Assembly (NCBI GenBank): GCA_036381415.1
Contig: DASVCV010000002.1
Location: forward strand, 84,091 to 148,090
Source of the DNA: Patescibacteria group bacterium
GTDB lineage: Bacteria; Patescibacteriota; Microgenomatia; UBA8517
Direction of reading: 5' to 3'
DNA length: 64,000 nt
In this document: positions 20-55,290 of the stretch, in pieces
How positions within the stretch are numbered: the first letter of the stretch is position 1
Layout of the letters: every line of letters begins with the position of its first letter
Program-made: the position numbers and the translations under genes
The notes under the pieces: model-generated
Told to the model about the DNA's origin: nothing
The model's database searches: none
Seen by the model: the letters and a program-made list of their open reading frames with translations, nothing else

Positions 20-529
20 TTGGGATATTGGCCAGATTCAGGTCCTGGAACTGTTACAGTAGTAGCAGATGACTGCATAGCATCAGATAGAAGTGGAATG
101 GTTACAGTACAGATTGCTGAGGAGCAGGCTTTGGGAGAATTAGCTAATAAAAAACTAGGGCAGATGACTGAGGATGAAAGAGTTATGGTAATTGGACGAC
201 AAAAATATAGATATCCTGTAATGATGGTTGCTGCAGCCTCCCAGCAGGGAATAATGAACCTGGAGAGTAAGAATGCAAAGGTGATAACAGGTGGGGCAGT
301 CTATTCTTTGAATGACTCCTTATATTTAATGAGAACTTCTGAGGAGGAAGGATTTACAGATGAGGACTTTTTTGTTGGAGATATGGGTTCGTGGCTAGGC
401 AGGCTCCCTGAAGCATATGATGACAAAGCTCCTTGGAACAAAGTAAGAAGGGAATTGGTTAATTATTGGGTGTCTTCAAACAAGCTTCCAAAGAGTCTTG
501 CTAAAACCAATTATTGTGAGTGGAAGTAA
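20..529 (+). CDS. hypothetical protein (TTG start; frame is open to window edge so may be 3' part of a longer gene)
   Basis: 169-aa ORF with GGAG 5 nt upstream of TTG at 20; no recognisable motifs; sits where rplL is usually found upstream of rpoB. Confidence 0.35.
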   Translation: MGYWPDSGPGTVTVVADDCIASDRSGMVTVQIAEEQALGELANKKLGQMTEDERVMVIGRQKYRYPVMMVAAASQQGIMNLESKNAKVITGGAVYSLNDSLYLMRTSEEEGFTDEDFFVGDMGSWLGRLPEAYDDKAPWNKVRRELVNYWVSSNKLPKSLAKTNYCEWK

Positions 530-545
530 TTTTATAGTTCGGGTG

Positions 546-573
546 TTGACAAGTTAAATTCTACAGGTATAAT
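546..573 (+). promoter_or_regulatory. sigma70-like promoter TTGACA-16nt-TATAAT upstream of rpoBC
   Basis: TTGACA at 546-551, TATAAT at 568-573, read directly. Confidence 0.5.
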
Positions 574-582
574 TCCTTTAAG

Positions 583-627
583 CCTACCTAGTGTAGGTTG
601 GACCCGTGTCTGTCGCACGGGCGTTTT
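583..627 (+). promoter_or_regulatory. rpoB leader stem-loops (CCTAC/GTAGG 583-597; CCCGTG/CACGGG 603-621 followed by TTTT)
   Basis: inverted repeats read directly; lies between promoter and ATG at 649. Confidence 0.35.
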
Positions 628-648
628 GCATAAAAACCCAAACTCTCA

Positions 649-3600
649 ATGGCCCAGAAAAGAAGATATTTCGGAAAACAGGAAAAGGATCTGCCAAAGC
701 TTGATTTGTCTTTCGTCCAGAAAGAATCATGGAAATGGTTTATTTCTGAAGGAATTGCAAATGAACTTACTGAAATCTCTCCGATAAATGACTTTGCAGG
801 AAAGAACTGGGAATTATCACTTTCAAACCCCGTAATAGGAGCTCCAATAATTACACCCCAAGAAGCACAAGAAAAAGGATTAAGTTTTGCGTCTCCTTTT
901 AAGGTTGATGCTAAGCTTGTAAACAAAAAGACTGGAAAAGAAATAACTCAGGAAGTGTTTTTTGGAAATATCCCACAAATGACAACTGCTGGGACATTTA
1001 TTATTAACGGTATTGAAAGAGCAGTTATTTCTCAGTTAGTCCGTTCTCCAGGAGCTTATTTTTCAGGTGACCTTGACCAGGCATCAGGACGCATGCTTTA
1101 CTATGCAGAAATAAGGCCACTTCATCATGGATCTTGGTTGGAGTTTGAAGTAAGTAAAACTGATGTAATTTCAGCAAGAATAGATAGAAGAAGAAAAGTT
1201 CCTGTGACAACCTTGCTTAGGGCTATGGGAATTGCAACTGATAATGAATTAAAAGCACTTTTTGCAGAAGTTGATACAGATAAAAATCATCAGTATATTT
1301 CAAAAACTATTGAGAAGGATTCTTCAAAAACCAGAGAAGATGCTCTGCTTGAAATCTACAGAAAATTAAGACCTGGTGAGCCAGCAGTACTTGAAAATGC
1401 AGAAAATCTTTTCTACAGTCTCTTTTTTGATCCAAGAAGATATGATTTAGGACGTGTAGGACGCTACAAGATAAATAAAAGACTTTCACTTGATGTTCCT
1501 AATGAGAGACAGAACTGGGTTTTGACAAAACAAGATGTGGTTGCAGCAATTACCTATTTAATTGGGCTTCAAAATGGACAAGGAAGAGTTGATGATATTG
1601 ATCATCTTGCAAACAGACGCTTAAGACGTGTTGGAGAGTTGGTTGCAACACATGCATTTAGAGTAGGACTACTTAGGCTTGAACGCTCAATTAAAGAAAA
1701 GATGAGCTTAATTTCTCCTGATGACAGGCCAAATCCAGCTAACTTAATTAACGCAAGACCTTTAATTGCAGCACTTAATGAGTTTTTCAGATCAAATCAG
1801 CTTTCAACTATTATTGACGATACTAATCCAGCTTCAGAAATTGATAACTTAAGAAGAGTATCAGTACTAGGGCCTGGTGGAATAAACAGAGAGCGTGCTT
1901 CATTTTCAATCAGGGACGTTAATTCATCTCAGTATGGAAGAATTGATCCTGTTAGATCTCCTGAGGGAATGAACATTGGACTTGTTACCTACCTTACTTT
2001 ATATGCAAAAGTAAATGAATATGGATTTTTGGAAACACCATATAGAAAAGTTGAGAAGGTTAAAGTAGGAGGAAAAACAAGAGCAAAAGTTACTGATAAT
2101 GTTGTTTATTTGAGTGCAGATGAAGAAGAGCAGTTCCATATTACCCATGCTGGAGTAAATATTGATAAAGATGGATTTATAGCAGATGAGCGTGTTCCAT
2201 TTAGACTTCATGGAACTTTTTCAGAAGGATTTGCAAGACTAGCTGACTATATTGATTACACACCAAGACAGGTATTTGGAACCTCAGCTTCTCTTATTCC
2301 ATTTTTGGCACATGATGAAGGAAATCGTGCTTTGATGGGATCTAACATGCAATGTCAGGCAGTTCCTCTTATTGCTCCTTCCTCACCAGTTGTTGGAACA
2401 GGAATGGAAGGGGTTGTAGCTAGTGCAATGGGAAGAGTGGTAACAGCTCCAGTTGATGGAGTAGTTGAATATGCAGATGCATCTGAAATAATTTTTAAGG
2501 CTAATAAGAAGATTGAGTTAGATGAAATCCCAGGAGGAGGACAGCTAATTGATAATGGAAAGAAAATTTCATATAAATTAACTAAATTTAGACGCACTGC
2601 ACAATCAACTTGTTATAACCAAAAAGTAAGAGTTGTAACTGGCCAAAAAGTTAAAAAAGGAGAGTTACTTGTAGAGGGACCAGCTTCAGAATTGGGTGAA
2701 CTTGCTTTGGGACAAAACTTGGTTGTTGCCTACTCATCTTTTGGAGGATATGGATTTGAGGATGCAATTTTAATTTCAGACAGAGTTGTTAAGGATGATT
2801 TACTTACTTCAATCCAAATTAAAGAATATGAAGCAGATGTAGTTGAGACTAAACTAGGACCTGAAGTACTAACTCGTGATATTCCAAATGTTGCAGAAAG
2901 TGAACTTGCTAATTTGGCATCTGATGGAATAGTAGTAGTTGGAGCAGAAGTAGGGCCAAATGATATGCTTGTTGGAAAGATTGCTCCTAAGGGAGAGACT
3001 GAGTTAACTAGTGAGGAAAGACTTCTTAGAGCTATTTTTGGAGAAAAAGCACGTGAAGTAAGAGACACTTCTCTTCGTGTTCCACATGGAGAAGGTGGAA
3101 TTGTAATTGATGTAACCATACTTTCTAAAGAAAAGGGAGATGAGTTAGGCCCTGGAGTAATTAAAAGCGTAATTGTAAAAGTTGCACAGATTAGAAAAGT
3201 AATGGTTGGAGACAAGGTTGCAGGGCGTCATGGAAATAAAGGAGTTATTGCAAAAATCATGCCTACAAATGACATGCCTTACTTAAATGATGGAACTCCT
3301 GTTGATATAGTAATTTCTCCTCTTTCAGTTCTTGCCCGTATGAACCTAGGACAGTTACTTGAGTGTCATTTGGGTTGGGCAATGCAGAAGAATGGTGAAA
3401 AAGCTGCACTTCCAGTTTTTGACAATGTTAATGAGGGAGTAGTTACAGATGAATTGAGAAAAGCAGGACTTCCAGTAAGTGGAAAAACAAAGCTATATGA
3501 TGGAAGAACCGGAGTTGCTTTTGAGGAAGATACAGTTGTTGGAATTGGCTACATAATGAAGCTAAAGCACATGATTGAGGATAAGATCCATGCAAGAAGT

Positions 3601-6600
3601 ACTGGACCATACTCACTTGTTACACAACAGCCACTTGGAGGAAAAGCTCAAATGGGAGGACAAAGACTTGGGGAAATGGAAGTTTGGGCACTTGAAGCAC
3701 ATAGAGCAGCTCATACTTTGCAGGAAATGCTTACTATTAAATCTGATGACATTATCGGACGCGCACAAGCATTTGGAGCAATTGTTAAGGGAGATGAAAT
3801 TCCTGAAGCAAAGGTTCCTGAATCATTTAAAGTACTTATTCGTGAACTTAATTCTTTGGGACTTGCTATTAATGTAGAAGGCGGAGTTGCAAAACAGGTT
3901 GAGGGAGAAGAAGTAGCAGCTGAATCAAGTGAGAAAAAGCAGTATGCAAATGATCCACTTGTAAGGCTTAAAGATCTTGAAGACTTTAAGTCACTTCAGA
4001 TTAGATTGGCATCTGATAGCGAGATTAGATCTTGGTCAAGAGGAGAAGTAACTAAGCCTGAAACTATTAATTACAGAACTCTTAAACCTGAGAAAGATGG
4101 ACTTTTTGATGAGAGAATTTTTGGACCTACAAAAGACTGGGAGTGCTACTGCGGAAAGTACAAGAGAATTAGATATAAGGGAGTTGTTTGTGATAAATGC
4201 GGAGTTGAGGTAACTGAATCAAGAGTAAGAAGAGAGAGAATGGGACATATTTCTTTGGCCGCTCCTGTAGTTCATGTCTGGTTTTTCAAAGGAGCACCTT
4301 CCAAGATTTCACTTCTTTTGGATCTTCCTCCAAGAGCTGTTGAGCAAGTAGTTTACTTTGCAAGATATATGGTTATTGCTGTTAATGAGAAAGAAAGAGA
4401 TAAATCACTTAAGACTTTAGTGAGTATTCAGGATGAAAAGATCAAAGAAATTAAAGAAACATATGCTGAAAGAGTAGATTTAATCAGAAAAGATGGAGTT
4501 GAGAAGAAAGAAAAAGTTACAAAGAGATTAAAGGACAAAGAACAGCAAGCACTTGCCTTATCTGAAGTAGATCTTGATACAAGAAAGAAAGAAACAGCAT
4601 TGGGTGAGGAAGAAAGAAATACTTTAGAAAAGACACAAGAATTGTTTGATAAACTCACAGATCTTGTAAAAAGTATGAAGCCATTTGGATTTTTGTCAGA
4701 GGAAGAATATGACAAACTTGCTTCATATGGAGTTGCAGACTTTGTTGATGTAAAAATGGGAGCTGATGCAATTTTGGCAGCAGTGAGTGCACTTAACTTG
4801 GACAAGATTTCAGCAGAACTAAGAGCACAAGCAGATGAACTTAAAGGCAAAGGAGCAAAATATCTAAAGTTAACTAAGAGACTTAAGATTATTGATGGAT
4901 TAAAGGAAGCAAAAATTAATCCAACTTCTGTTGTGCTTAAAGCACTACCTGTACTTCCACCAGATCTAAGACCTATGGTCCAACTTGCAGGAGGAAGATT
5001 TGCAACCAGCGACTTAAATGATCTTTACAGAAGAGTAATTAACAGAAACAACAGATTAAAACACTTAATTGGACTTGGAGCACCTGAAATAATCTTAAGG
5101 AATGAAAAGAGAATGCTTCAAGAAGCAATTGACTCACTAATCGATGCATCTCAAAGAAAAGCAACAAGAAGAGGAAGGGGAAGACAAGCATTAAGAAGTC
5201 TTTCTGACATGCTTAAAGGAAAACAAGGAAGATTTAGACAGAACTTACTTGGAAAGAGAGTTGATTATTCAGGAAGATCAGTAATTGTAGTGGGTCCTGA
5301 ACTTAAACTTACACAGTGCGGACTTCCAAAGGAAATGGCACTAGAGATGTTTAAGCCATTTGTACTTCGCGAAATGATTATTCGCGGAATTGCACCTAAT
5401 GTAAAGAGTGCAAAGAATATGCTTGAGAGAAGGCCTCCTGAAGTGTTTGATATTTTGGAGGAAATTACTGTAAATCATCCTGTTCTTCTAAACCGCGCAC
5501 CAACCTTGCACAAACTAGGAATTCAGGCATTTTTCCCAGTACTTATTGAAGGAAATGCAATCAGGATTCATCCAGCAGTATGCTCTGGATACAATGCTGA
5601 CTTTGATGGAGACCAAATGGCAGTACATATTCCACTTTCAAAGAAAGCAATGGAAGAAGCAGTTACCCTAATGCTTTCTGACAAGAATTTGCTTAAGCCA
5701 TCTGATGGATCTCCAGTTTCAACTCCTGCTTCAAAGGAAATGGCACTTGGAGTTTATTATCTAACCAGTGAAGATGGCAGAATTGAACCTTTTGATGCAG
5801 TGTTTTCTGATAAAGGTGAGGCTATTTTGGCATACCAGACAGGAAAAATAAGATTAAGACAAAAAATTAATGTAAGAATTGAAACTAGTGTTCTTGAGAC
5901 AACTGTAGGAAGAATAATCTTTAATGAAGTACTTCCTGAAAGCTTTGGATTTATAAATGCAGGAATTAATTCAAGTGCAATTAAGGATCTTATAACACAG
6001 GCTTACTCTACTTTAGAAAGAGACCGTGTAGTTGAGCTTATTGATGCAATCAAGAATCTAGGATTCTTGGGAGGAACAGTATCAGGACTTTCATTTGGAG
6101 TAAGTGATGCAACCATACTTCCTGAGAAAGATAAGATTATTAAGCAAGCTGATAAGCATGTTGCTGAAATTGAAAAGAATTTTGCACAGGGACTTATAAC
6201 AAACGAAGAGAAAAGACGCATGGTACAGTCTGTCTGGATTGAGACAACTGAAGAAATTGCTGAAAAGACTTGGGAATTTATTGATCCAAACTCTTCAATC
6301 AAGCTTGTAATTGATGCAAAAGTTGGCCGTACCTCAAGAGAACAAATTAAACAGCTTGCTGGAATGAGAGGATTGGTTGTTGATCCATTAGGAAAGATAG
6401 TTGAACTTCCAATTAAATCTAACTTTAGGGAAGGTCTTTCAGTATTTGAATATGTGACTTCTGGAAGAGGATCTAGAAAAGGACTTACTGACACTGCATT
6501 AAAGACAGCAGATGCTGGATACTTAACAAGAAGGCTAGTAGATGTTGCCCATGATGTAATAATTCGGGAGGAAGACTGTGGAAGCCAAGAAGGATTAGTT

Positions 6601-7686
6601 ATTAAGAGAAGTGTTAGGACTCCCGCTTTTGCAAAGAGAATTTCTGGAAGATTTGCACATGAGGATGTGGTTGATAAGAAAGGAAAGATTATTGTAGCTA
6701 AGGGGGCAGTCATTGATGAAAAGACAGCTAAAGCAATTGAGGCAAATCTAGATGTAAATCAAGTTGTAATTAGATCTCCACTTTCTTGTATAACTCGCTA
6801 TGGAGTATGCCAGAAGTGCTATGGGTGGGATCTTTCAAACAAGAAATTAGTAGATATTGGAGTACCAGTAGGAGTAATTGCAGCCCAGTCTATTGGAGAA
6901 CCTGGAACTCAGCTAACACTTCGTACCAAGCATTCTGGAGGAGTAGTTGGAGTTGATGTGACTCAAGGACTACCTAGAGTTGAGGAATTATTTGAGTCTA
7001 GAATGCCAAAGACTTTGTCTCCTCTTTCTGAGATTAGCGGTAAAGTAAGTGTAACTGAACCTGATGATGAAGGATGGCTAGTTAAAGTAACAAATACTAC
7101 TGTTAAGCCAAAGGAAGAAAGAGAATATATAATTCCTAAAACTTCTAAGATTGCAGTTTCTGATGGACAACTAATTGATGCAGGAACTCAGCTTGCAAGC
7201 GGATTCTTGGATGTAAAAGAGATCCTTCTTGTAAGGGGATTGAGAAATGCACAGGAATACCTGGTAAATGAACTCCAGGCTGTTTATGAATCTCAAGGAA
7301 TTCCTATCAATGACAGACATTTTGAAGTAATAATCAGGAAGATGTGTGATGAGGTTAGAATTGTCACACCGGGAGATACCAGACTTCTTCCAGAGGAGTT
7401 GGCTGAAAAGAGCAGGTTTGAAGAAGAAAACGAGAAGGTTTTGGCAGCAGGAGGAGAACCAGCAACAGCAAGACAGGTAGTACTTGGTATTACAAGACGC
7501 GCTCTTTACACTGAATCCTGGCTATCAGCAGCCTCATTTGAGCAGACAACTGACATTTTGGCAGAAGCCTCATTAATGGGTAAACGCGACCAGTTAATTG
7601 GACTTAAAGAAAATGTCATTATAGGAAGACTTATACCGGTTGATGCCGAGCGAGCAGCTCTATTTAGACACAGACCTCTTAACTAG
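649..7686 (+). CDS. rpoBC: fused DNA-directed RNA polymerase beta-beta' (rpoB-rpoC in one 2345-aa ORF)
   Basis: continuous ORF; N-terminal 1080 aa carry beta motifs (e.g. NMQRQAVPL-like MGSNMQCQAVPL, GEMEVWALEA); from ~aa 1100 onward beta' motifs (IRSWSRGEVTKPETINYRT, zinc finger CYCGKY..CDKCGVEV, NADFDGDQMAVH); no stop or frameshift at junction ~3880-3960. Confidence 0.9.
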   Translation: MAQKRRYFGKQEKDLPKLDLSFVQKESWKWFISEGIANELTEISPINDFAGKNWELSLSNPVIGAPIITPQEAQEKGLSFASPFKVDAKLVNKKTGKEITQEVFFGNIPQMTTAGTFIINGIERAVISQLVRSPGAYFSGDLDQASGRMLYYAEIRPLHHGSWLEFEVSKTDVISARIDRRRKVPVTTLLRAMGIATDNELKALFAEVDTDKNHQYISKTIEKDSSKTREDALLEIYRKLRPGEPAVLENAENLFYSLFFDPRRYDLGRVGRYKINKRLSLDVPNERQNWVLTKQDVVAAITYLIGLQNGQGRVDDIDHLANRRLRRVGELVATHAFRVGLLRLERSIKEKMSLISPDDRPNPANLINARPLIAALNEFFRSNQLSTIIDDTNPASEIDNLRRVSVLGPGGINRERASFSIRDVNSSQYGRIDPVRSPEGMNIGLVTYLTLYAKVNEYGFLETPYRKVEKVKVGGKTRAKVTDNVVYLSADEEEQFHITHAGVNIDKDGFIADERVPFRLHGTFSEGFARLADYIDYTPRQVFGTSASLIPFLAHDEGNRALMGSNMQCQAVPLIAPSSPVVGTGMEGVVASAMGRVVTAPVDGVVEYADASEIIFKANKKIELDEIPGGGQLIDNGKKISYKLTKFRRTAQSTCYNQKVRVVTGQKVKKGELLVEGPASELGELALGQNLVVAYSSFGGYGFEDAILISDRVVKDDLLTSIQIKEYEADVVETKLGPEVLTRDIPNVAESELANLASDGIVVVGAEVGPNDMLVGKIAPKGETELTSEERLLRAIFGEKAREVRDTSLRVPHGEGGIVIDVTILSKEKGDELGPGVIKSVIVKVAQIRKVMVGDKVAGRHGNKGVIAKIMPTNDMPYLNDGTPVDIVISPLSVLARMNLGQLLECHLGWAMQKNGEKAALPVFDNVNEGVVTDELRKAGLPVSGKTKLYDGRTGVAFEEDTVVGIGYIMKLKHMIEDKIHARSTGPYSLVTQQPLGGKAQMGGQRLGEMEVWALEAHRAAHTLQEMLTIKSDDIIGRAQAFGAIVKGDEIPEAKVPESFKVLIRELNSLGLAINVEGGVAKQVEGEEVAAESSEKKQYANDPLVRLKDLEDFKSLQIRLASDSEIRSWSRGEVTKPETINYRTLKPEKDGLFDERIFGPTKDWECYCGKYKRIRYKGVVCDKCGVEVTESRVRRERMGHISLAAPVVHVWFFKGAPSKISLLLDLPPRAVEQVVYFARYMVIAVNEKERDKSLKTLVSIQDEKIKEIKETYAERVDLIRKDGVEKKEKVTKRLKDKEQQALALSEVDLDTRKKETALGEEERNTLEKTQELFDKLTDLVKSMKPFGFLSEEEYDKLASYGVADFVDVKMGADAILAAVSALNLDKISAELRAQADELKGKGAKYLKLTKRLKIIDGLKEAKINPTSVVLKALPVLPPDLRPMVQLAGGRFATSDLNDLYRRVINRNNRLKHLIGLGAPEIILRNEKRMLQEAIDSLIDASQRKATRRGRGRQALRSLSDMLKGKQGRFRQNLLGKRVDYSGRSVIVVGPELKLTQCGLPKEMALEMFKPFVLREMIIRGIAPNVKSAKNMLERRPPEVFDILEEITVNHPVLLNRAPTLHKLGIQAFFPVLIEGNAIRIHPAVCSGYNADFDGDQMAVHIPLSKKAMEEAVTLMLSDKNLLKPSDGSPVSTPASKEMALGVYYLTSEDGRIEPFDAVFSDKGEAILAYQTGKIRLRQKINVRIETSVLETTVGRIIFNEVLPESFGFINAGINSSAIKDLITQAYSTLERDRVVELIDAIKNLGFLGGTVSGLSFGVSDATILPEKDKIIKQADKHVAEIEKNFAQGLITNEEKRRMVQSVWIETTEEIAEKTWEFIDPNSSIKLVIDAKVGRTSREQIKQLAGMRGLVVDPLGKIVELPIKSNFREGLSVFEYVTSGRGSRKGLTDTALKTADAGYLTRRLVDVAHDVIIREEDCGSQEGLVIKRSVRTPAFAKRISGRFAHEDVVDKKGKIIVAKGAVIDEKTAKAIEANLDVNQVVIRSPLSCITRYGVCQKCYGWDLSNKKLVDIGVPVGVIAAQSIGEPGTQLTLRTKHSGGVVGVDVTQGLPRVEELFESRMPKTLSPLSEISGKVSVTEPDDEGWLVKVTNTTVKPKEEREYIIPKTSKIAVSDGQLIDAGTQLASGFLDVKEILLVRGLRNAQEYLVNELQAVYESQGIPINDRHFEVIIRKMCDEVRIVTPGDTRLLPEELAEKSRFEEENEKVLAAGGEPATARQVVLGITRRALYTESWLSAASFEQTTDILAEASLMGKRDQLIGLKENVIIGRLIPVDAERAALFRHRPLN

Positions 7687-7725
7687 ATTTAGTTTTAGAG
7701 GAACACTCGTAGTATAATAGCCAAT

Positions 7726-8166
7726 ATGCCAACAGTATCTCAATTAGTCAGACATGGAAGAAGAAGTAACCCAAAGAAAAGAAAGGCTACTTCTCTTAAG
7801 TGGTGGTTTAATGCAAAAGACCGCAAATTTGGGGAGTTTCACTCTCCTTTTAAGCGTGGAGTAGTTTTATCTGTAAGAACAATGACTCCAAAAAAACCTA
7901 ACTCAGCTTTGAGAAAAGTGGCTAGGGTTAGACTTTCAAACAAACAGGAAGTTACAGCATATATTCCAGGTGAGGGACATGAACTAGCAGAGCATGCAAT
8001 TGTCATGGTAAGAGGCGGACGTGTAAAAGATCTTCCAGGAGTTAAATATCATTTGGTTAGAGGAAAATATGACACAACTGGAGTTGTAGGAAGAAAGACC
8101 TCAAGAAGTAGATATGGAGCAAAAGAAGGAGGAGCTGCAAAGACTGAAGCTGCAGCAGCAAGCTAA
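7726..8166 (+). CDS. rpsL: 30S ribosomal protein S12 with ~20-aa Ala/Glu-rich C-terminal tail
   Basis: PTVSQLVR...[10 protein letters not shown]...VRGG motifs. Confidence 0.95.
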
Positions 8167-8645
8167 TGGCAAGAAGAGGAGCACCAAGAGCAAGAAAAGT
8201 AGAACTAGATCCAATCTATAAAGATAGAATGGTTACTAAGCTTATTGGACGTGCAATGAAGGATGGAAAGAAATCAGTTATTCAAAAAGAAGTCTACAAA
8301 GGTTTTGAAATAATTAAAGAAAAAACAAAAGAAGATCCAATGGTTGTTTTTGCACAAGCTCTTGAGAACATAAAACCAACAATGGAAGTAAGAGCAAGAA
8401 GAATTGGTGGAGCAGCTTATCAGGTTCCAATGCAGGTAAGAGGAGTAAGAAGAGAATCCCTTGCAATCAGATGGTTAGTTGAAAATTCAAGGAAAAGATC
8501 AAATAGTGAGTTTAGAACATATGCTGAGAAATTAGCAGCAGAGATAATGGATGCTGCTAAAGGTGAAGGAGCAGCTGTAAAGAAAAAGGCAGATATGGAA
8601 AGATCAGCAGAAGCCAATAAAGCTTTTAGTCACTTCAAGTGGTAA
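8166..8645 (+). CDS. rpsG: 30S ribosomal protein S7
   Basis: TAATG overlap with rpsL; S7-like sequence incl. RIGGAAYQVP. Confidence 0.95.
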   Translation: MARRGAPRARKVELDPIYKDRMVTKLIGRAMKDGKKSVIQKEVYKGFEIIKEKTKEDPMVVFAQALENIKPTMEVRARRIGGAAYQVPMQVRGVRRESLAIRWLVENSRKRSNSEFRTYAEKLAAEIMDAAKGEGAAVKKKADMERSAEANKAFSHFKW

Positions 8646-8737: not shown

Positions 8738-9715
8738 ATGGCAAATAAATCTGTTGATTTTGGAAAGATTATTAATAGATCTTGGGAAGTTACTTTAAAA
8801 AATAAGTGGCTTTGGGTAATTGGAATTGTGTTGGCAGTTTTTGGTGGAGGAGCAGGTGGGACAAATTTATATTCTAATTTTTCAAATGCACAAAAGGGAA
8901 CAAATAGTGCTACTTCTTCCAGTCAGTTTACAGATGTTATAGGAAACTTATTAAAGTCTGTTCCTGTTGCAACATGGGTGCTTTTGGTACTTGGGTTTAT
9001 ACTTATTATTCTTTTTTCAGTTGCAGTTGCTTGGATTATTGTAAGCTGGGCGAAAGGAGCTCTTATAAAAGGATTTGATGATGCTGAGAAAGATAAAAAA
9101 GTTGATCTTAAAATCCTTGGGAGCCACGGAATTGCAAGCTTAAAGAAACTATTTATTTACAACCTTATTTCTATTGGGATGTTTTTAGCAATAATGGTTG
9201 GTTCCCTAATTGTACTTTTTGTTTTAGGAGTTATCTTTGCATTTATTCCAGTAGTGGGAGTGATATTGATGATTCCACTTTGGATAATAGGATTTTTGGG
9301 AATATTTATTTTAGTAGTTTTATTTGCAATGATTTCAATATATGCAGAAAGATTAATAGTTTTAAAGAATTATTCTCCTTGGGTGGCTTGGAAAAAGGGA
9401 TTAAGTTTAAGTAGGGGTAATTTTTTGCACAGTCTTATAATGGGGATTATAAACACGGCAATTGGATGTTCTGTGGGGTGTTTATCAATGCTAGTGTTAT
9501 TAATTATTTTGGGATTACCTGCATTGTTATTTGCTATTCCTATGTTTAGTGGAGGAAGTTTTCATCTTCCAAATATTTTTCAAATAATTGGAATTGTCGT
9601 TCTTGTTATTTTTTATTTTGTTGCTAATTCTGTAATTAGAGCCTTTTTGATTGTTTTTAATTATGGAAATTGGAATCAACTTTTCTGGAAAGTAATGAAG
9701 GAGGAACTAAAATGA
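8738..9715 (+). CDS. polytopic integral membrane protein, unknown family
   Basis: 325 aa, multiple hydrophobic spans; inserted between rpsG and fusA. Confidence 0.55.
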   Translation: MANKSVDFGKIINRSWEVTLKNKWLWVIGIVLAVFGGGAGGTNLYSNFSNAQKGTNSATSSSQFTDVIGNLLKSVPVATWVLLVLGFILIILFSVAVAWIIVSWAKGALIKGFDDAEKDKKVDLKILGSHGIASLKKLFIYNLISIGMFLAIMVGSLIVLFVLGVIFAFIPVVGVILMIPLWIIGFLGIFILVVLFAMISIYAERLIVLKNYSPWVAWKKGLSLSRGNFLHSLIMGIINTAIGCSVGCLSMLVLLIILGLPALLFAIPMFSGGSFHLPNIFQIIGIVVLVIFYFVANSVIRAFLIVFNYGNWNQLFWKVMKEELK

Positions 9716-10338
9716 AAAATATTGCATCTTTCTGGTTTAGAATTTTAGGGTTTTTAATAGACTGGCTAATTCACATGCTTTTGTTATTGGCTTTAATTTT
9801 GTGGGTTTCTACATCTTCTACTATGGAAGAAGCTACTAACAGGTTTTTAACCTTTCTTATAATTGATTTCTTTTATAGTATTGGTTTTGCATTTTTTAAT
9901 CCTTATTTGATATCACGTTTTGGTGGAACTATTGGAAAACTTTTGACTGGAACAAGAATTGTTAATCCAGAGGGCAAGAAGGTTAATTTTTATAGAGCAT
10001 TTTTTAGAAATCATATTGGATATATGATTTCTGCAAGTCTTTTCTGGATAGGATTTATTTGGATACTAATTGATAAAGAAAGAAGAAGCTGGCATGATCA
10101 AATTGCAAATACTTATGTAGTTAAGGTGAATAAAACTATGTTTATAGTTGGAATTGCAGCCTTAGCTATTTTATTAGGGACATATGGTTATTTGGTAAAT
10201 TCAACTGTTAAGAATTTTAGTGCTAACTCAGGAATCTATATGAACTTTTTAAAGAGCATAGAGACTAAACCACAACAAACAAAGACTCCAACTACAGAGC
10301 AACTTAAACTAAAGAGTTCTCCTGTTAAGGTCCAGTAG
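9712..10338 (+). CDS. RDD-family membrane protein
   Basis: GGAGG RBS before ATG at 9712 (ORF-track start 9670 is probably too far upstream); RRSWHDQIANTYVV resembles RDD motif. Confidence 0.55.
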   Translation: MKNIASFWFRILGFLIDWLIHMLLLLALILWVSTSSTMEEATNRFLTFLIIDFFYSIGFAFFNPYLISRFGGTIGKLLTGTRIVNPEGKKVNFYRAFFRNHIGYMISASLFWIGFIWILIDKERRSWHDQIANTYVVKVNKTMFIVGIAALAILLGTYGYLVNSTVKNFSANSGIYMNFLKSIETKPQQTKTPTTEQLKLKSSPVKVQ

Positions 10339-14252: not shown

Positions 14253-14561
14253 ATGCCAGCAGGAAGACTAAGAGTTAAACTCAAAAGCTATGACCATAGG
14301 GTTATAGATGAGGCTGCAACAAAAATACTTGAAACAGCCATAGCTACTGGTGCTAAAATTGTCGGACCAATCCCCTTACCTACTAAAAGAACAATTCTTG
14401 CTGTAAAGAAATCTCCTTTTACTGATAAAGATGCACAAGAACATTTTGAAATTTTGGTGCACAAAAGATTAATTGATATTTTGGATCCATCAGATAGAAC
14501 AATTGATTCACTTTCAAATTTGGATCTCCCAGCAGGAGTCTCCATAGAAATTAAGATGTAG
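14253..14561 (+). CDS. rpsJ: 30S ribosomal protein S10
   Basis: 102 aa, RLRVKLKSYDHRVID... Confidence 0.95.
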   Translation: MPAGRLRVKLKSYDHRVIDEAATKILETAIATGAKIVGPIPLPTKRTILAVKKSPFTDKDAQEHFEILVHKRLIDILDPSDRTIDSLSNLDLPAGVSIEIKM

Positions 14562-15693
14562 TTTTATTTAGTCTTAATAGATAAATATTAACTAGAAACA
14601 AGATAACAGCTCCATAAAAGGTATTTGATAACACTAAAGATATTGGAAAGTTTTCAAACATATTAGGATTTTTAAAATTCCAACTTACAAATAGATAGGC
14701 AATTCCTATTAGCATTAAAGTCAGGAATTTTTTTTGTTTTAATGAGTAAGAGGCAAGAATAATAAATGGAAACAAAAGCCATATAAAGTGGTGCTGCCAG
14801 GATAGAGAGTCAATAAGGGGCAAAGAGATTACAAAAAGTGAGAATGTTAGATCTATATTTTTCTTTTTAAGAGTAAAGACAGATATAGTTAAGGTGATAA
14901 TAAAAGATATTGCTAAACTTACAAATTTACGTAAGGAGGAGTCGGTTAAGAGCCTAGATATGAAACCTGTAATGCCTTGGTTGTAGTAAATTTCTCTTCC
15001 TGATACTTCTAGAAGGGGTGGGATTACTACTTTTAGATAGTATTCATAAAGGTCAAATCTTGAGACAAGTGCAACAAGAAAGGTGGAGGCAGCTATCGGA
15101 ATTAGAGAGTATAGAATTACTTTCCACTCCTGTTTTAGGATAAAAAACAGAATGAAAAATCCAAAAACTGTTTTTAAGCTGATTGTTAATCCTAAGATGA
15201 GTCCTGCCACCTTGTAATTTTTTCTTTTGTAAAAATAGAAAGAGGAAAGAAGCATAAAAAGGGATATGGAGTTGTTTTGCCCCATTCCAAGGGTAAATTT
15301 TGTAGGAAAGGATATGAGTACTAAAGAAGTTATCAAAAGAAAGGCCCATATTGAAAATTTTTTTATGCTAATTTTTAATGAGAGATAAATTGATCCCAAT
15401 ATTGTTATTAGGATTAGTAAGATGAAAATTGTTTGGGCAAGTTGGTAATTAAAAATTGTTAGAGGCAGATAGAATAGAAGAGTGTTTGGGGGGTAGCCTA
15501 CTCCTGTAAAAATGTCGGGGTGCATATATGGATTATTAGAAGTAGGAAGATAGCTTGCAGCATGCCACAAAACATTAAAATCTGGAGTGGTTGTAGATAT
15601 TATTTTGTAAAGAGAAATGCTAGTTAGTATAACTACAAAAAATGAAAATGCTAAAACACAAATTTTGAAAGGACTTAAATTTTTTTTAATCAT
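14551..15693 (-). CDS. GT-C-fold membrane glycosyltransferase-like protein (DUF2029/GT87-like)
   Basis: 380 aa, ~10 TM spans, N-terminal PDFNVLWHAASYL..NNPY resembles DF..Y..a....NPY signature; inserted between rpsJ and rplC on opposite strand. Confidence 0.45.
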   Translation of the reverse strand: MIKKNLSPFKICVLAFSFFVVILTSISLYKIISTTTPDFNVLWHAASYLPTSNNPYMHPDIFTGVGYPPNTLLFYLPLTIFNYQLAQTIFILLILITILGSIYLSLKISIKKFSIWAFLLITSLVLISFPTKFTLGMGQNNSISLFMLLSSFYFYKRKNYKVAGLILGLTISLKTVFGFFILFFILKQEWKVILYSLIPIAASTFLVALVSRFDLYEYYLKVVIPPLLEVSGREIYYNQGITGFISRLLTDSSLRKFVSLAISFIITLTISVFTLKKKNIDLTFSLFVISLPLIDSLSWQHHFIWLLFPFIILASYSLKQKKFLTLMLIGIAYLFVSWNFKNPNMFENFPISLVLSNTFYGAVILFLVNIYLLRLNKTTS

Positions 15694-32200: not shown

Positions 32201-32273
32201 CAGAGCGTAGCGTAGATGGTAGCGCGCCACTATGGGGTAGTGGAGGTCGTGAGTTCGAATCTCACCGCTCTGA
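32201..32273 (+). tRNA. tRNA-Pro (anticodon GGG), CCA not encoded
   Basis: cloverleaf folded by eye: acceptor CAGAGCG/CGCTCTG, D-stem GCGT/GCGC, anticodon stem CCACT/AGTGG with loop aTGGGGt, T-arm GTGAG-TTCGAAT-CTCAC. Confidence 0.8.
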
Positions 32274-39758: not shown

Positions 39759-40082
39759 TTGCTCTGGAGGAAGGGTAATCGCGCTTTCCAGGCTCAAACG
39801 AGCCTAGAGAGTGAGGAAAGTCCAGGCAGCATAAGGCACGGTGCCTAGCTTAATATGCTAGGACGGGAGCCTTACAGAAATGTAAGGTGACCGCTAGTTA
39901 GAGCAACAGAGACTACGACTCATTCTGAACCGAATAGGTTTGGAAAAGAGAGTGAAAAGAGCAATCCTCCCGGCTGCAACCTCCGAATGGGACGTTTGAG
40001 GTGCCTTACCGAGTCCCGAGGTTTGAGGGCATAGATGGATGGTTACCTAAAACAGAACCTGGCTTACTATCCTTCAGAGCAC
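39759..40082 (+). ncRNA. rnpB: RNase P RNA (bacterial type)
   Basis: GAGGAAAGTCCAGGC (P4 5' strand) and ACAGAACCTGGCTTA (P4 3' strand) with compensatory G->A / C->T change relative to E. coli GUCCGGGC/ACCCGGC; P1 pairing GCTCTGGAGG (39761) with CCTTCAGAGC (40071); TATAAT at 39749-39754. Confidence 0.85.
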
Positions 40083-40111
40083 AAAAAGATGAGTTCTGGT
40101 ACAATAGCTTC

Positions 40112-40555
40112 ATGCGTTTGGTGGTTCAGAGGGTTAAAAAAGCTGAAGTTACAGTAGTTTCTTCAGGTAAAGTGGCAGGGTCAATTGAAAAAGGATTATT
40201 TGTTTTAGTGGGTGTTAAAAAGGGAGATACCAAAAAAGAGGCTGAGATACTTGCAAATAAAATAGTTAAATTAAGAGTAATGGCAGATGAAGCAGGAAAG
40301 ATGAATTTGTCTGTAGTAGATACTAAGTCAAAGATTTTGGCTGTTTCTCAGTTTACTTTATATGCAGATACAAAAGGAGGGAATAGGCCTTCTTTCATAC
40401 AAGCAGAAGATCCAGAAAAGGCTGTAGAAATCTACAATCATTTTGTAGCAAAAATTAAAGAGCTAGGAGTGGAAACTGAGATAGGTAGTTTTGGGAGTGA
40501 AATGAAAATTGATACAGAATTAGATGGTCCCGTTACAATAATTTTTGAGACTTAA
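40112..40555 (+). CDS. dtd: D-aminoacyl-tRNA deacylase
   Basis: MRLVVQRV start, SQFTLYAD motif; ORF-track N-terminal extension (40001-40111) is the 3' part of rnpB. Confidence 0.88.
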   Translation: MRLVVQRVKKAEVTVVSSGKVAGSIEKGLFVLVGVKKGDTKKEAEILANKIVKLRVMADEAGKMNLSVVDTKSKILAVSQFTLYADTKGGNRPSFIQAEDPEKAVEIYNHFVAKIKELGVETEIGSFGSEMKIDTELDGPVTIIFET

Positions 40556-55216: not shown

Positions 55217-55290
55217 TGCGGGATCGTATAATGGCAGTACCTATGACTCTGGATCATAGTATCTTGGTTCGAATCCAAGTCCCGCAGCCA
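55217..55290 (+). tRNA. tRNA-Gln (anticodon CTG), CCA encoded
   Basis: acceptor TGCGGGA/TCCCGCA, anticodon stem TATGA/TCATA, loop cTCTGGa, T-arm CTTGG-TTCGAAT-CCAAG, 3' GCCA. Confidence 0.85.

Follow-up and report, generated by a model that had tools for sequence, protein, structure and literature searches.

The DNA analyzed here, which we refer to as the window, is a 64,000-nucleotide (nt) stretch of a Patescibacteria group metagenome-assembled genome (MAG; GCA_036381415.1, contig DASVCV010000002.1) from an uncultured bacterium of Woesebacteria type, in which rpoB and rpoC, the genes that encode RNA polymerase's beta and beta' chains, are joined in one frame. An earlier interpretation of the same DNA, made without database searches (the sequence-only reading), had described one 2345-amino acid (aa) rpoB-rpoC open reading frame (ORF) at 649-7686, and the ORF listing, a translation with zero internal stops and the Pfam and NCBIfam searches all confirmed this. 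The ORF is uninterrupted, starts with ATG and spans 649..7686 on the + strand, stop codon included. Its parts are:

649..7686, + strand: fused rpoB-rpoC ORF, 2345 aa, ~260 kDa (ORF listing, domain and profile searches)
649..3885, + strand: complete beta module, aa 1-1079, end approximate (PRK00405, Rpb2 domains)
3886..3942, + strand: acidic tether VAKQVEGEEVAAESSEKKQ, aa 1080-1098, pI ~4.7 (from alignment; edges uncertain by a few residues)
3943..3945, + strand: TAT (Tyr1099) at the likely position of the ancestral rpoC start (from alignment)
3943..7683, + strand: complete beta' module, aa ~1099-2345 (TIGR02386, Rpb1 domains)

Both the beta and the beta' module are complete within the one ORF. 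Rpb2 domains 1-7 were found at aa 67-1076 and Rpb1 domains 1, 2, 3 and 5 at aa 1111-2280 (Pfam). Among the NCBIfam profiles, the rpoB model PRK00405 matched at full length (aa 4-1077, profile positions 2-1095 of 1096) with 1377 bits against a cutoff of 896, and TIGR02013, also for rpoB, scored 1354 bits against 801, while the rpoC model TIGR02386 matched at full length from aa 1116 to aa 2331 (profile positions 2-1138 of 1147) with 1517 bits against 963.5. The beta' zinc motif CYCGKY...CDKCG and the catalytic NADFDGD are both present in the translation, where GYNADFDGDQMAVH is read, and the peptides quoted in the sequence-only reading were likewise found in their places. The zinc-binding cysteines are invariant across an alignment of the window with its fused relatives (alignment A1). 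The protein is 100% identical to NCBI entry HEX6976975.1 from a Patescibacteria group MAG, which is labelled 'DNA-directed RNA polymerase subunit beta''. Within Rpb1 domain 1 of beta', a Lys/Glu-rich, coiled-coil-like insertion (window 4380-4930, aa ~1245-1425) stretches the Pfam match to 423 aa for a profile of 312 positions, and the alignment consensus indicates that this insertion is kept in the fused relatives.

The two modules are joined by a non-homologous, Glu/Lys-rich tether of ~20 aa, VAKQVEGEEVAAESSEKKQ, directly followed by DPLVRLKDLEDFKSLQIRLAS, which is the ordinary beta' N-terminus and is also found in relatives with a separate rpoC. In two such relatives rpoC begins with MVGDSLIDLKNLDTFKSL (L082) and MEPLSDLRTLADFKSL (L084), and since both of these starts align to YANDPLVRLKDLEDFKSL of the window, the beta' module would begin at ~aa 1099, leaving a tether of ~20 aa. 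The alignment of PDB beta' chains to the fusion starts with their residue 3, which pairs with aa 1109. A Glu-rich linker in frame between the subunits, as originally proposed, is therefore present, but its supposed length of ~40 aa included residues that belong to the ordinary beta' N-terminus. The tether occupies the place of the acidic beta C-terminal tail seen in separate-gene relatives, and K1097 (3937-3939) is aligned with the former rpoB stop. Trypsin would release QVEGEEVAAESSEK from the tether and QYANDPLVR from across the old rpoC start. The junction was modelled with AlphaFold2 as a fragment of 301 aa, using 43 sequences; the predicted local distance difference test score (pLDDT) averaged 49 and was lowest in the tether, and the model served solely to indicate that the tether is probably disordered. 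The chance that a random codon is a stop is 0.08 at 36% GC, and an open stretch of 21 codons has a chance probability of ~0.18, while the other two reading frames are closed across the tether. A lone genome thus proves little here, and the weight of the argument rests on the comparative data.

When the entire protein was used as query, 63 clusters (P0001-P0063) with 70-96% identity were obtained, each with beta and beta' domains, from NCBI, JGI, ENA and Logan assemblies with contigs of up to 940 kb (some measuring 0.6-0.9 Mb), and relatives of the window thus carry the same fusion. In all 64 fused proteins (the window and these 63) the frame is open across the tether, whose length varies between 1 and 53 aa (median 19) and whose sequence, with 22% E and 13% K, is not conserved. 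The closely related locus L088, 89% identical to the window, is fused on a 750-kb contig of GCA_040960095.1; the two beta modules differ by 396 synonymous and 106 non-synonymous codons, whereas the tethers, with 4 synonymous and 10 non-synonymous changes, also differ by an indel of one codon, which keeps the frame. Fused proteins have been publicly deposited since at least the GW2011 genomes, and UniProt names one from Candidatus Woesebacteria (P0124; KKQ95928.1 / UniRef100_A0A0G1DHR5) 'Multifunctional fusion protein'. A search of open-access full text yielded no publication about rpoBC fusion for the candidate phyla radiation (CPR), Patescibacteria or Woesebacteria.

These data bear directly on the possibility that the fusion is an artefact, in which a miscalled base erased the rpoB stop or an indel error placed two separate genes in frame. 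Such an error is conceivable in that the source is a MAG, that one base change suffices in relatives, and that the junction of one isolated fused tip (P0066) lies in an indel-prone A-run. However, the same state recurs in 63 clusters from independent projects and on the 750-kb contig of L088, the fused and separate states are phylogenetically coherent (see below), the window junction contains no long homopolymer, and the old start codon has been replaced by Tyr or Phe in the window, P0001 and P0002, which is beyond any single error. In the window and its relatives alike, rpoB and rpoC share a reading frame that no stop interrupts, and this conservation in many independent assemblies leaves an artefact a negligible probability, indicating that the fusion is real and inherited rather than an assembly error.

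The distribution of the fused state was examined in two neighbour-joining (NJ) trees. In a tree of concatenated beta and beta' (2103 columns), with named loci from a contig scan as references, the window is placed in a fused clade with 100% bootstrap. This clade lies, far from Helicobacter, inside a Patescibacteria group with 99% support (99/100 bootstraps) that also holds the separate-gene loci L003, L013 and L005 (Parcubacteria), L034 (Saccharibacteria) and L072 (Nomurabacteria), all five with stops between rpoB and rpoC. In a beta-only tree of 317 sequences, the main fused set is divided into a group of 59 and a group of 5 by an intervening separate-gene clade of 9 members, and P0064, P0065 and P0066 are lone fused tips inside separate-gene Microgenomates clades. 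The window groups with fused proteins and not with separate-gene Woesebacteria, its nearest neighbours by beta distance (P0001-P0004) all being fused. Among 184 Woesebacteria-level sequences, 183 share their state with the nearest neighbour, compared to 54% under permutation (maximum 73%); the two states are strongly heritable. Since fused tips occur within separate-gene clades and many separate-gene Woesebacteria lie at the same distance, the character is nevertheless homoplastic. The fusion had been put forward as a useful lineage marker, and it does delimit a subset of Woesebacteria, but the isolated fused tips and the many equidistant separate-gene Woesebacteria restrict this use.

Two observations concern single loci in these trees. 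The lone fused rpoBC of P0066 (L085/L086), recovered from two JGI samples, has its junction in the A-run AAG AAA AAA ATG AAA, at the position where its relative L087 has GAA AAA TGA overlapping ATG AAA, and may represent either a real one-base slippage or a homopolymer error. Locus L060 (CAZIVC010000002.1), titled 'uncultured Gammaproteobacteria bacterium', groups with Parcubacteria L005 inside Patescibacteria in a clade with 100% bootstrap, suggesting that this MAG is probably mislabelled or contaminated.

Beta-only queries returned at least 120 separate beta clusters (P0407-P0526) of 1091-1162 aa at 73-77% identity, several of them named Candidatus Woesebacteria or Microgenomates. The idea that the fusion is fixed in the group, with no close relatives carrying separate genes, was therefore wrong, and the fused organisms are a subset of Woesebacteria. 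The protein search seems to be length-dependent, as the fused query listed no separate betas and the beta-only queries listed no fused proteins, not even the parent protein of the query; absence from a match list is thus no evidence of absence.

The separate Woesebacteria betas end in acidic C-terminal tails, mostly of 41-46 aa, with the recurring motif ELAxAAGAEVVAT..EL..PEGPMEVEE, a tail that is not present in the beta of other phyla and of which P0027, P0045 and P0047 retain a remnant, GAEGGEA, in their long tethers. On the relatives' contigs, the spacing between separate rpoB and rpoC ranges from -4 to +4 nt:

L082: rpoB/rpoC junction TAA-AAA-ATG, same frame
L083: rpoB/rpoC junction TAG-AAT-ATG, same frame
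L084: 1-nt spacer, rpoC in the +1 frame
L081: 4-nt spacer, rpoC in the +1 frame
L087: 4-nt ATGA overlap of rpoB and rpoC

Since the two genes abut or overlap, one stop substitution or a small indel is sufficient to fuse them. Many fused proteins read ...KK-M-V-x-D-P-L at the junction, consistent with TAA-AAA-ATG-GTx in which the stop has become a sense codon, and 'KK' stands beside the junction in 28 of the 64 fused proteins. We propose that the ancestral rpoB encoded an acidic C-terminal tail and stopped at a distance of -4 to +4 nt from the start of rpoC, with both genes often sharing a frame, and that loss of this stop, or a small indel where the frames differed, would have joined the ORFs. 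The present tether would then descend from the beta tail, the former stop and the spacer codons. As a control, a contig motif scan (EMEVWALE, ECYCGKYK, universal motifs) gave 80 loci from all phyla, none of them close to the window (L001-L080), of which 73 have a stop between the genes, one is fused (Helicobacter) and six could not be scored. Of the 74 scored loci from these unrelated bacteria, 35 have a single stop and nothing else interrupting the frames (a distance of '1'), suggesting that a one-base change would likewise fuse rpoB and rpoC in many unrelated same-frame bacteria. In L087 (5584-9266; GCA_030604845.1, a Microgenomates MAG), beta' was called as two ORFs of 124 and 1103 aa, the first sharing 4 nt with the second and another 4 nt with rpoB; the cause is a frameshift error or else a genuine split of beta'.

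The window further appears to lack an internal rpoC start. Tyr1099 occupies the alignment column of the L082 rpoC start (MVGDSL...), where the fused P0003, P0005, P0010 and P0041 keep a Met. Altogether this Met is kept in 6 of the 64 fused proteins and lost in 58, and the closest listed relatives, P0001 and P0002, have Phe in its place. No in-frame ATG or GTG occurs in 3820-4060, i.e., ~40 codons either side of the junction, where the sole in-frame NTG codons are TTG 3856 (aa 1070) and TTG 4006 (aa 1120, within the conserved IRLAS), and neither TTG has a Shine-Dalgarno (SD) sequence. A consensus scan of the + strand found no promoter-like site between 2492 and 5827. An internal start or ribosome-binding site, which would have spoken for two products, was thus sought at the junction and not found. 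Ahead of the fused gene the following signals were noted:

546..573, + strand: promoter-like TTGACA-16 nt-TATAAT, 12/12 sigma-70 consensus, 76 nt upstream of the ATG (consensus match only)
603..621, + strand: G+C-rich hairpin followed by the T-run CGTTTTGCAT, in the leader of the fused gene (pattern match only)

The first is the only 12/12 site in 400..8200, and the hairpin with its T-run is a possible attenuator-like element. With no start codon, SD or promoter near the junction, beta' most likely arises solely as the C-terminal part of the fused chain. Once the genes were joined, neither the start codon of rpoC nor its SD would have been needed any longer, and both could have decayed in the lineage of the window, so that the fusion would now be the only route to beta', acting as a ratchet.

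We also considered that the cell could still obtain two subunits from the fused ORF, through translation that initiates internally at a non-canonical codon close to the junction or through proteolysis of the exposed acidic tether. The tether is fast-evolving and probably disordered, with the lowest pLDDT of the fragment model, SD use is irregular in this genome, and Met persists at the old start in the six fused proteins mentioned above, all of which would be compatible with two products. On the other hand, the absence of ATG and GTG around the junction, the two TTG codons without an SD, the lack of a nearby promoter-like site and the loss of Met in most fused proteins argue against it, and the Helicobacter pylori fusion is reportedly a single tethered polypeptide. 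Production of two subunits thus appears very unlikely.

Taken together, we consider it highly probable that the window holds a real, inherited fusion that arose by stop loss or an indel between abutting genes, that encodes one tethered beta::beta' chain, that has since lost its internal start to decay, and that is probably near neutral. The product would be a single chain of ~260 kDa in which a flexible, Glu/Lys-rich tether of ~20 aa joins the termini. In the bacterial enzyme the C-terminus of beta is near the N-terminus of beta', and the fused enzyme should therefore work as an ordinary RNA polymerase. We infer that it would assemble as alpha2(beta::beta')omega and that the fusion would be nearly neutral, a covalent 1:1 link having taken the place of translational coupling.

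Several points weigh against this interpretation. The presence of a single beta::beta' polypeptide in vivo is deduced from the sequence, the closeness of the joined termini is taken from published structures and experiments, and the model of the junction fragment is too poor to show their geometry. Approximately half of the genes in the window have no recognisable SD, and a missing SD is thus weak evidence against internal initiation. In the beta-only NJ tree, moreover, 19 of 60 bootstraps recovered the 64 fused and 9 separate sequences together, and none of 60 recovered the 64 fused sequences alone; with such values a single origin of the main fused group lacks firm beta-only support, and the account of ancestral states is a reconstruction.

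A near-neutral fusion can be set against an adaptive one, which would have spread because it holds the two largest subunits to a 1:1 stoichiometry and lets them assemble co-translationally where the cell is tiny and polymerases and chaperones are few. The fused state has been kept over deep divergence despite heavy synonymous turnover, and it has been gained repeatedly in reduced-genome Patescibacteria, both of which would fit selection. In contrast, the genes of most equidistant Woesebacteria have stayed separate and are tightly coupled as they stand, the tether sequence is not conserved, and splitting of the Helicobacter pylori fusion is reportedly tolerated. The reverse change, fusion of the Escherichia coli genes, is reportedly tolerated as well, and synthetic E. 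coli beta-beta' fusions are described as functional (bioRxiv 10.1101/2021.11.05.467461). We therefore regard an adaptive origin as unlikely. Likewise unlikely is a combined interpretation, in which fusion is recurrent and reversible across Patescibacteria, eased by the abutting genes and the acidic beta tail, and in which the tail or tether functions at the polymerase surface; by analogy to the acidic tail of the Firmicute delta subunit, it may for example act as a nucleic-acid mimic. Under this combined interpretation the loss of the rpoC start would make the fused state of the window an irreversible ratchet, and fused and unfused Woesebacteria would be expected to differ in their transcription properties.

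Natural fusions have been published for Helicobacter and Wolinella (Gupta, 2006, PMC1557499; PMC9696931), and a Wolbachia beta/beta' fusion is attributed to Lane and Darst (2010) as cited in PMC7483510. As in the window, Helicobacter and Wolinella have one ORF with beta followed by beta', a short linker, inheritance within a clade and sister taxa with separate genes, and the fused control locus was L055 of Helicobacter muridarum. Yet the Helicobacter protein differs in its independent origin and in its size of ~2890 aa compared to 2345 aa in the window. Wolbachia shows the same architecture, also in a reduced-genome bacterium, but belongs to another lineage. The window protein scored 2049 bits against the cutoff of 5372 for the Helicobacter-type model NF007172 (PRK09603) and 1945 bits against 4632 for the Wolbachia-type model NF011417 (PRK14844). 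Since it falls below both curated cutoffs and is far from Helicobacter in the tree, the window fusion is an independent case of a known kind, outside the Helicobacter and Wolbachia families. To judge from the title of Zakharova et al. (1999), rpoB and rpoC overlap in campylobacters, which thus resemble the relatives L081-L084 and L087 in being kin of a fused lineage with abutting or overlapping genes. The Woesebacteria differ from campylobacters in that their beta adds an acidic tail of ~40-45 residues, the likely source of the tether. Among engineered enzymes, RNA polymerase of Mycobacterium tuberculosis (Mtb) is routinely made from a fused rpoBC construct (bioRxiv 10.64898/2026.04.06.716786), and in both the E. 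coli and the Mtb pMP61 constructs the beta C-terminus is tethered to the beta' N-terminus, as here, and the polymerase is active. These fusions are artificial with designed linkers, whereas the linker of the window has evolved. In a PDB sequence search, none of the best 60 matches exceeded 1524 residues in chain length, and hence no natural fused enzyme is among them.

Further full-length fused proteins of 2153-2812 aa were found in a library of representatives at 50% identity. In the NJ tree, P0067, P0069 and P0070 are placed among Patescibacteria, nested with separate-gene genomes, P0146 adjoins Saccharibacteria, P0072-76 and P0148 adjoin Verrucomicrobia, and several more lie on long branches. 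All six of the fused library proteins that were scored fall below the Helicobacter-type and Wolbachia-type cutoffs. The singletons among these proteins may include errors. The statement in the sequence-only reading that fusions are known from only a few lineages thus does not hold for the sequence record, as at least two other Patescibacteria lineages, a Verrucomicrobia-adjacent group and several long branches are also fused, and rpoB-rpoC fusion is commoner than the literature conveys. A large uncultured lineage is hereby added to the few textbook cases of bacteria in which beta and beta' are tethered, and the pattern suggests that fusions arise repeatedly wherever rpoB and rpoC abut. In practice, annotation pipelines label the fused proteins merely 'beta'' or 'beta', and a marker-gene workflow built for rpoB and rpoC as separate genes will encounter a single gene matching both models; the fused state can also help to delimit a Woesebacteria subgroup, subject to homoplasy. 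While our understanding of transcription is unchanged by the fusion, the locus offers a clean natural example of a gene fusion after which the internal start codon decayed.

Downstream of the fused gene, the window continues in the usual gene order:

7726-8166, + strand: rpsL, directly downstream of the fused gene
8166-8645, + strand: rpsG, after rpsL

Upstream lies an ORF at 20-529 (169 aa, TTG start) that has no Pfam match and differs from YceG, which is found upstream of rpoB in L081-L085 and L087; for the ORFs upstream of the L088 fused gene, likewise, no Pfam match was recorded. Between rpsG and fusA of an otherwise usual str operon, 8738-10338 holds two non-ribosomal genes, encoding a 325-aa ORF without a Pfam match and an RDD-family membrane protein. 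Directly after rpsJ, a GT87-family glycosyltransferase is encoded on the opposite strand (14551-15693, - strand), followed by an FtsJ-like methyltransferase, and these two genes break the usual order from rpsJ to the subsequent ribosomal-protein genes. Farther along, a bacterial RNase P RNA of class A was identified at 39763-40082 (+ strand; 110.8 bits against a gathering score of 100), overlapping the start of the mechanically called ORF 40001-40555, and tRNAs are located at 32201-32273 and 55217-55287.

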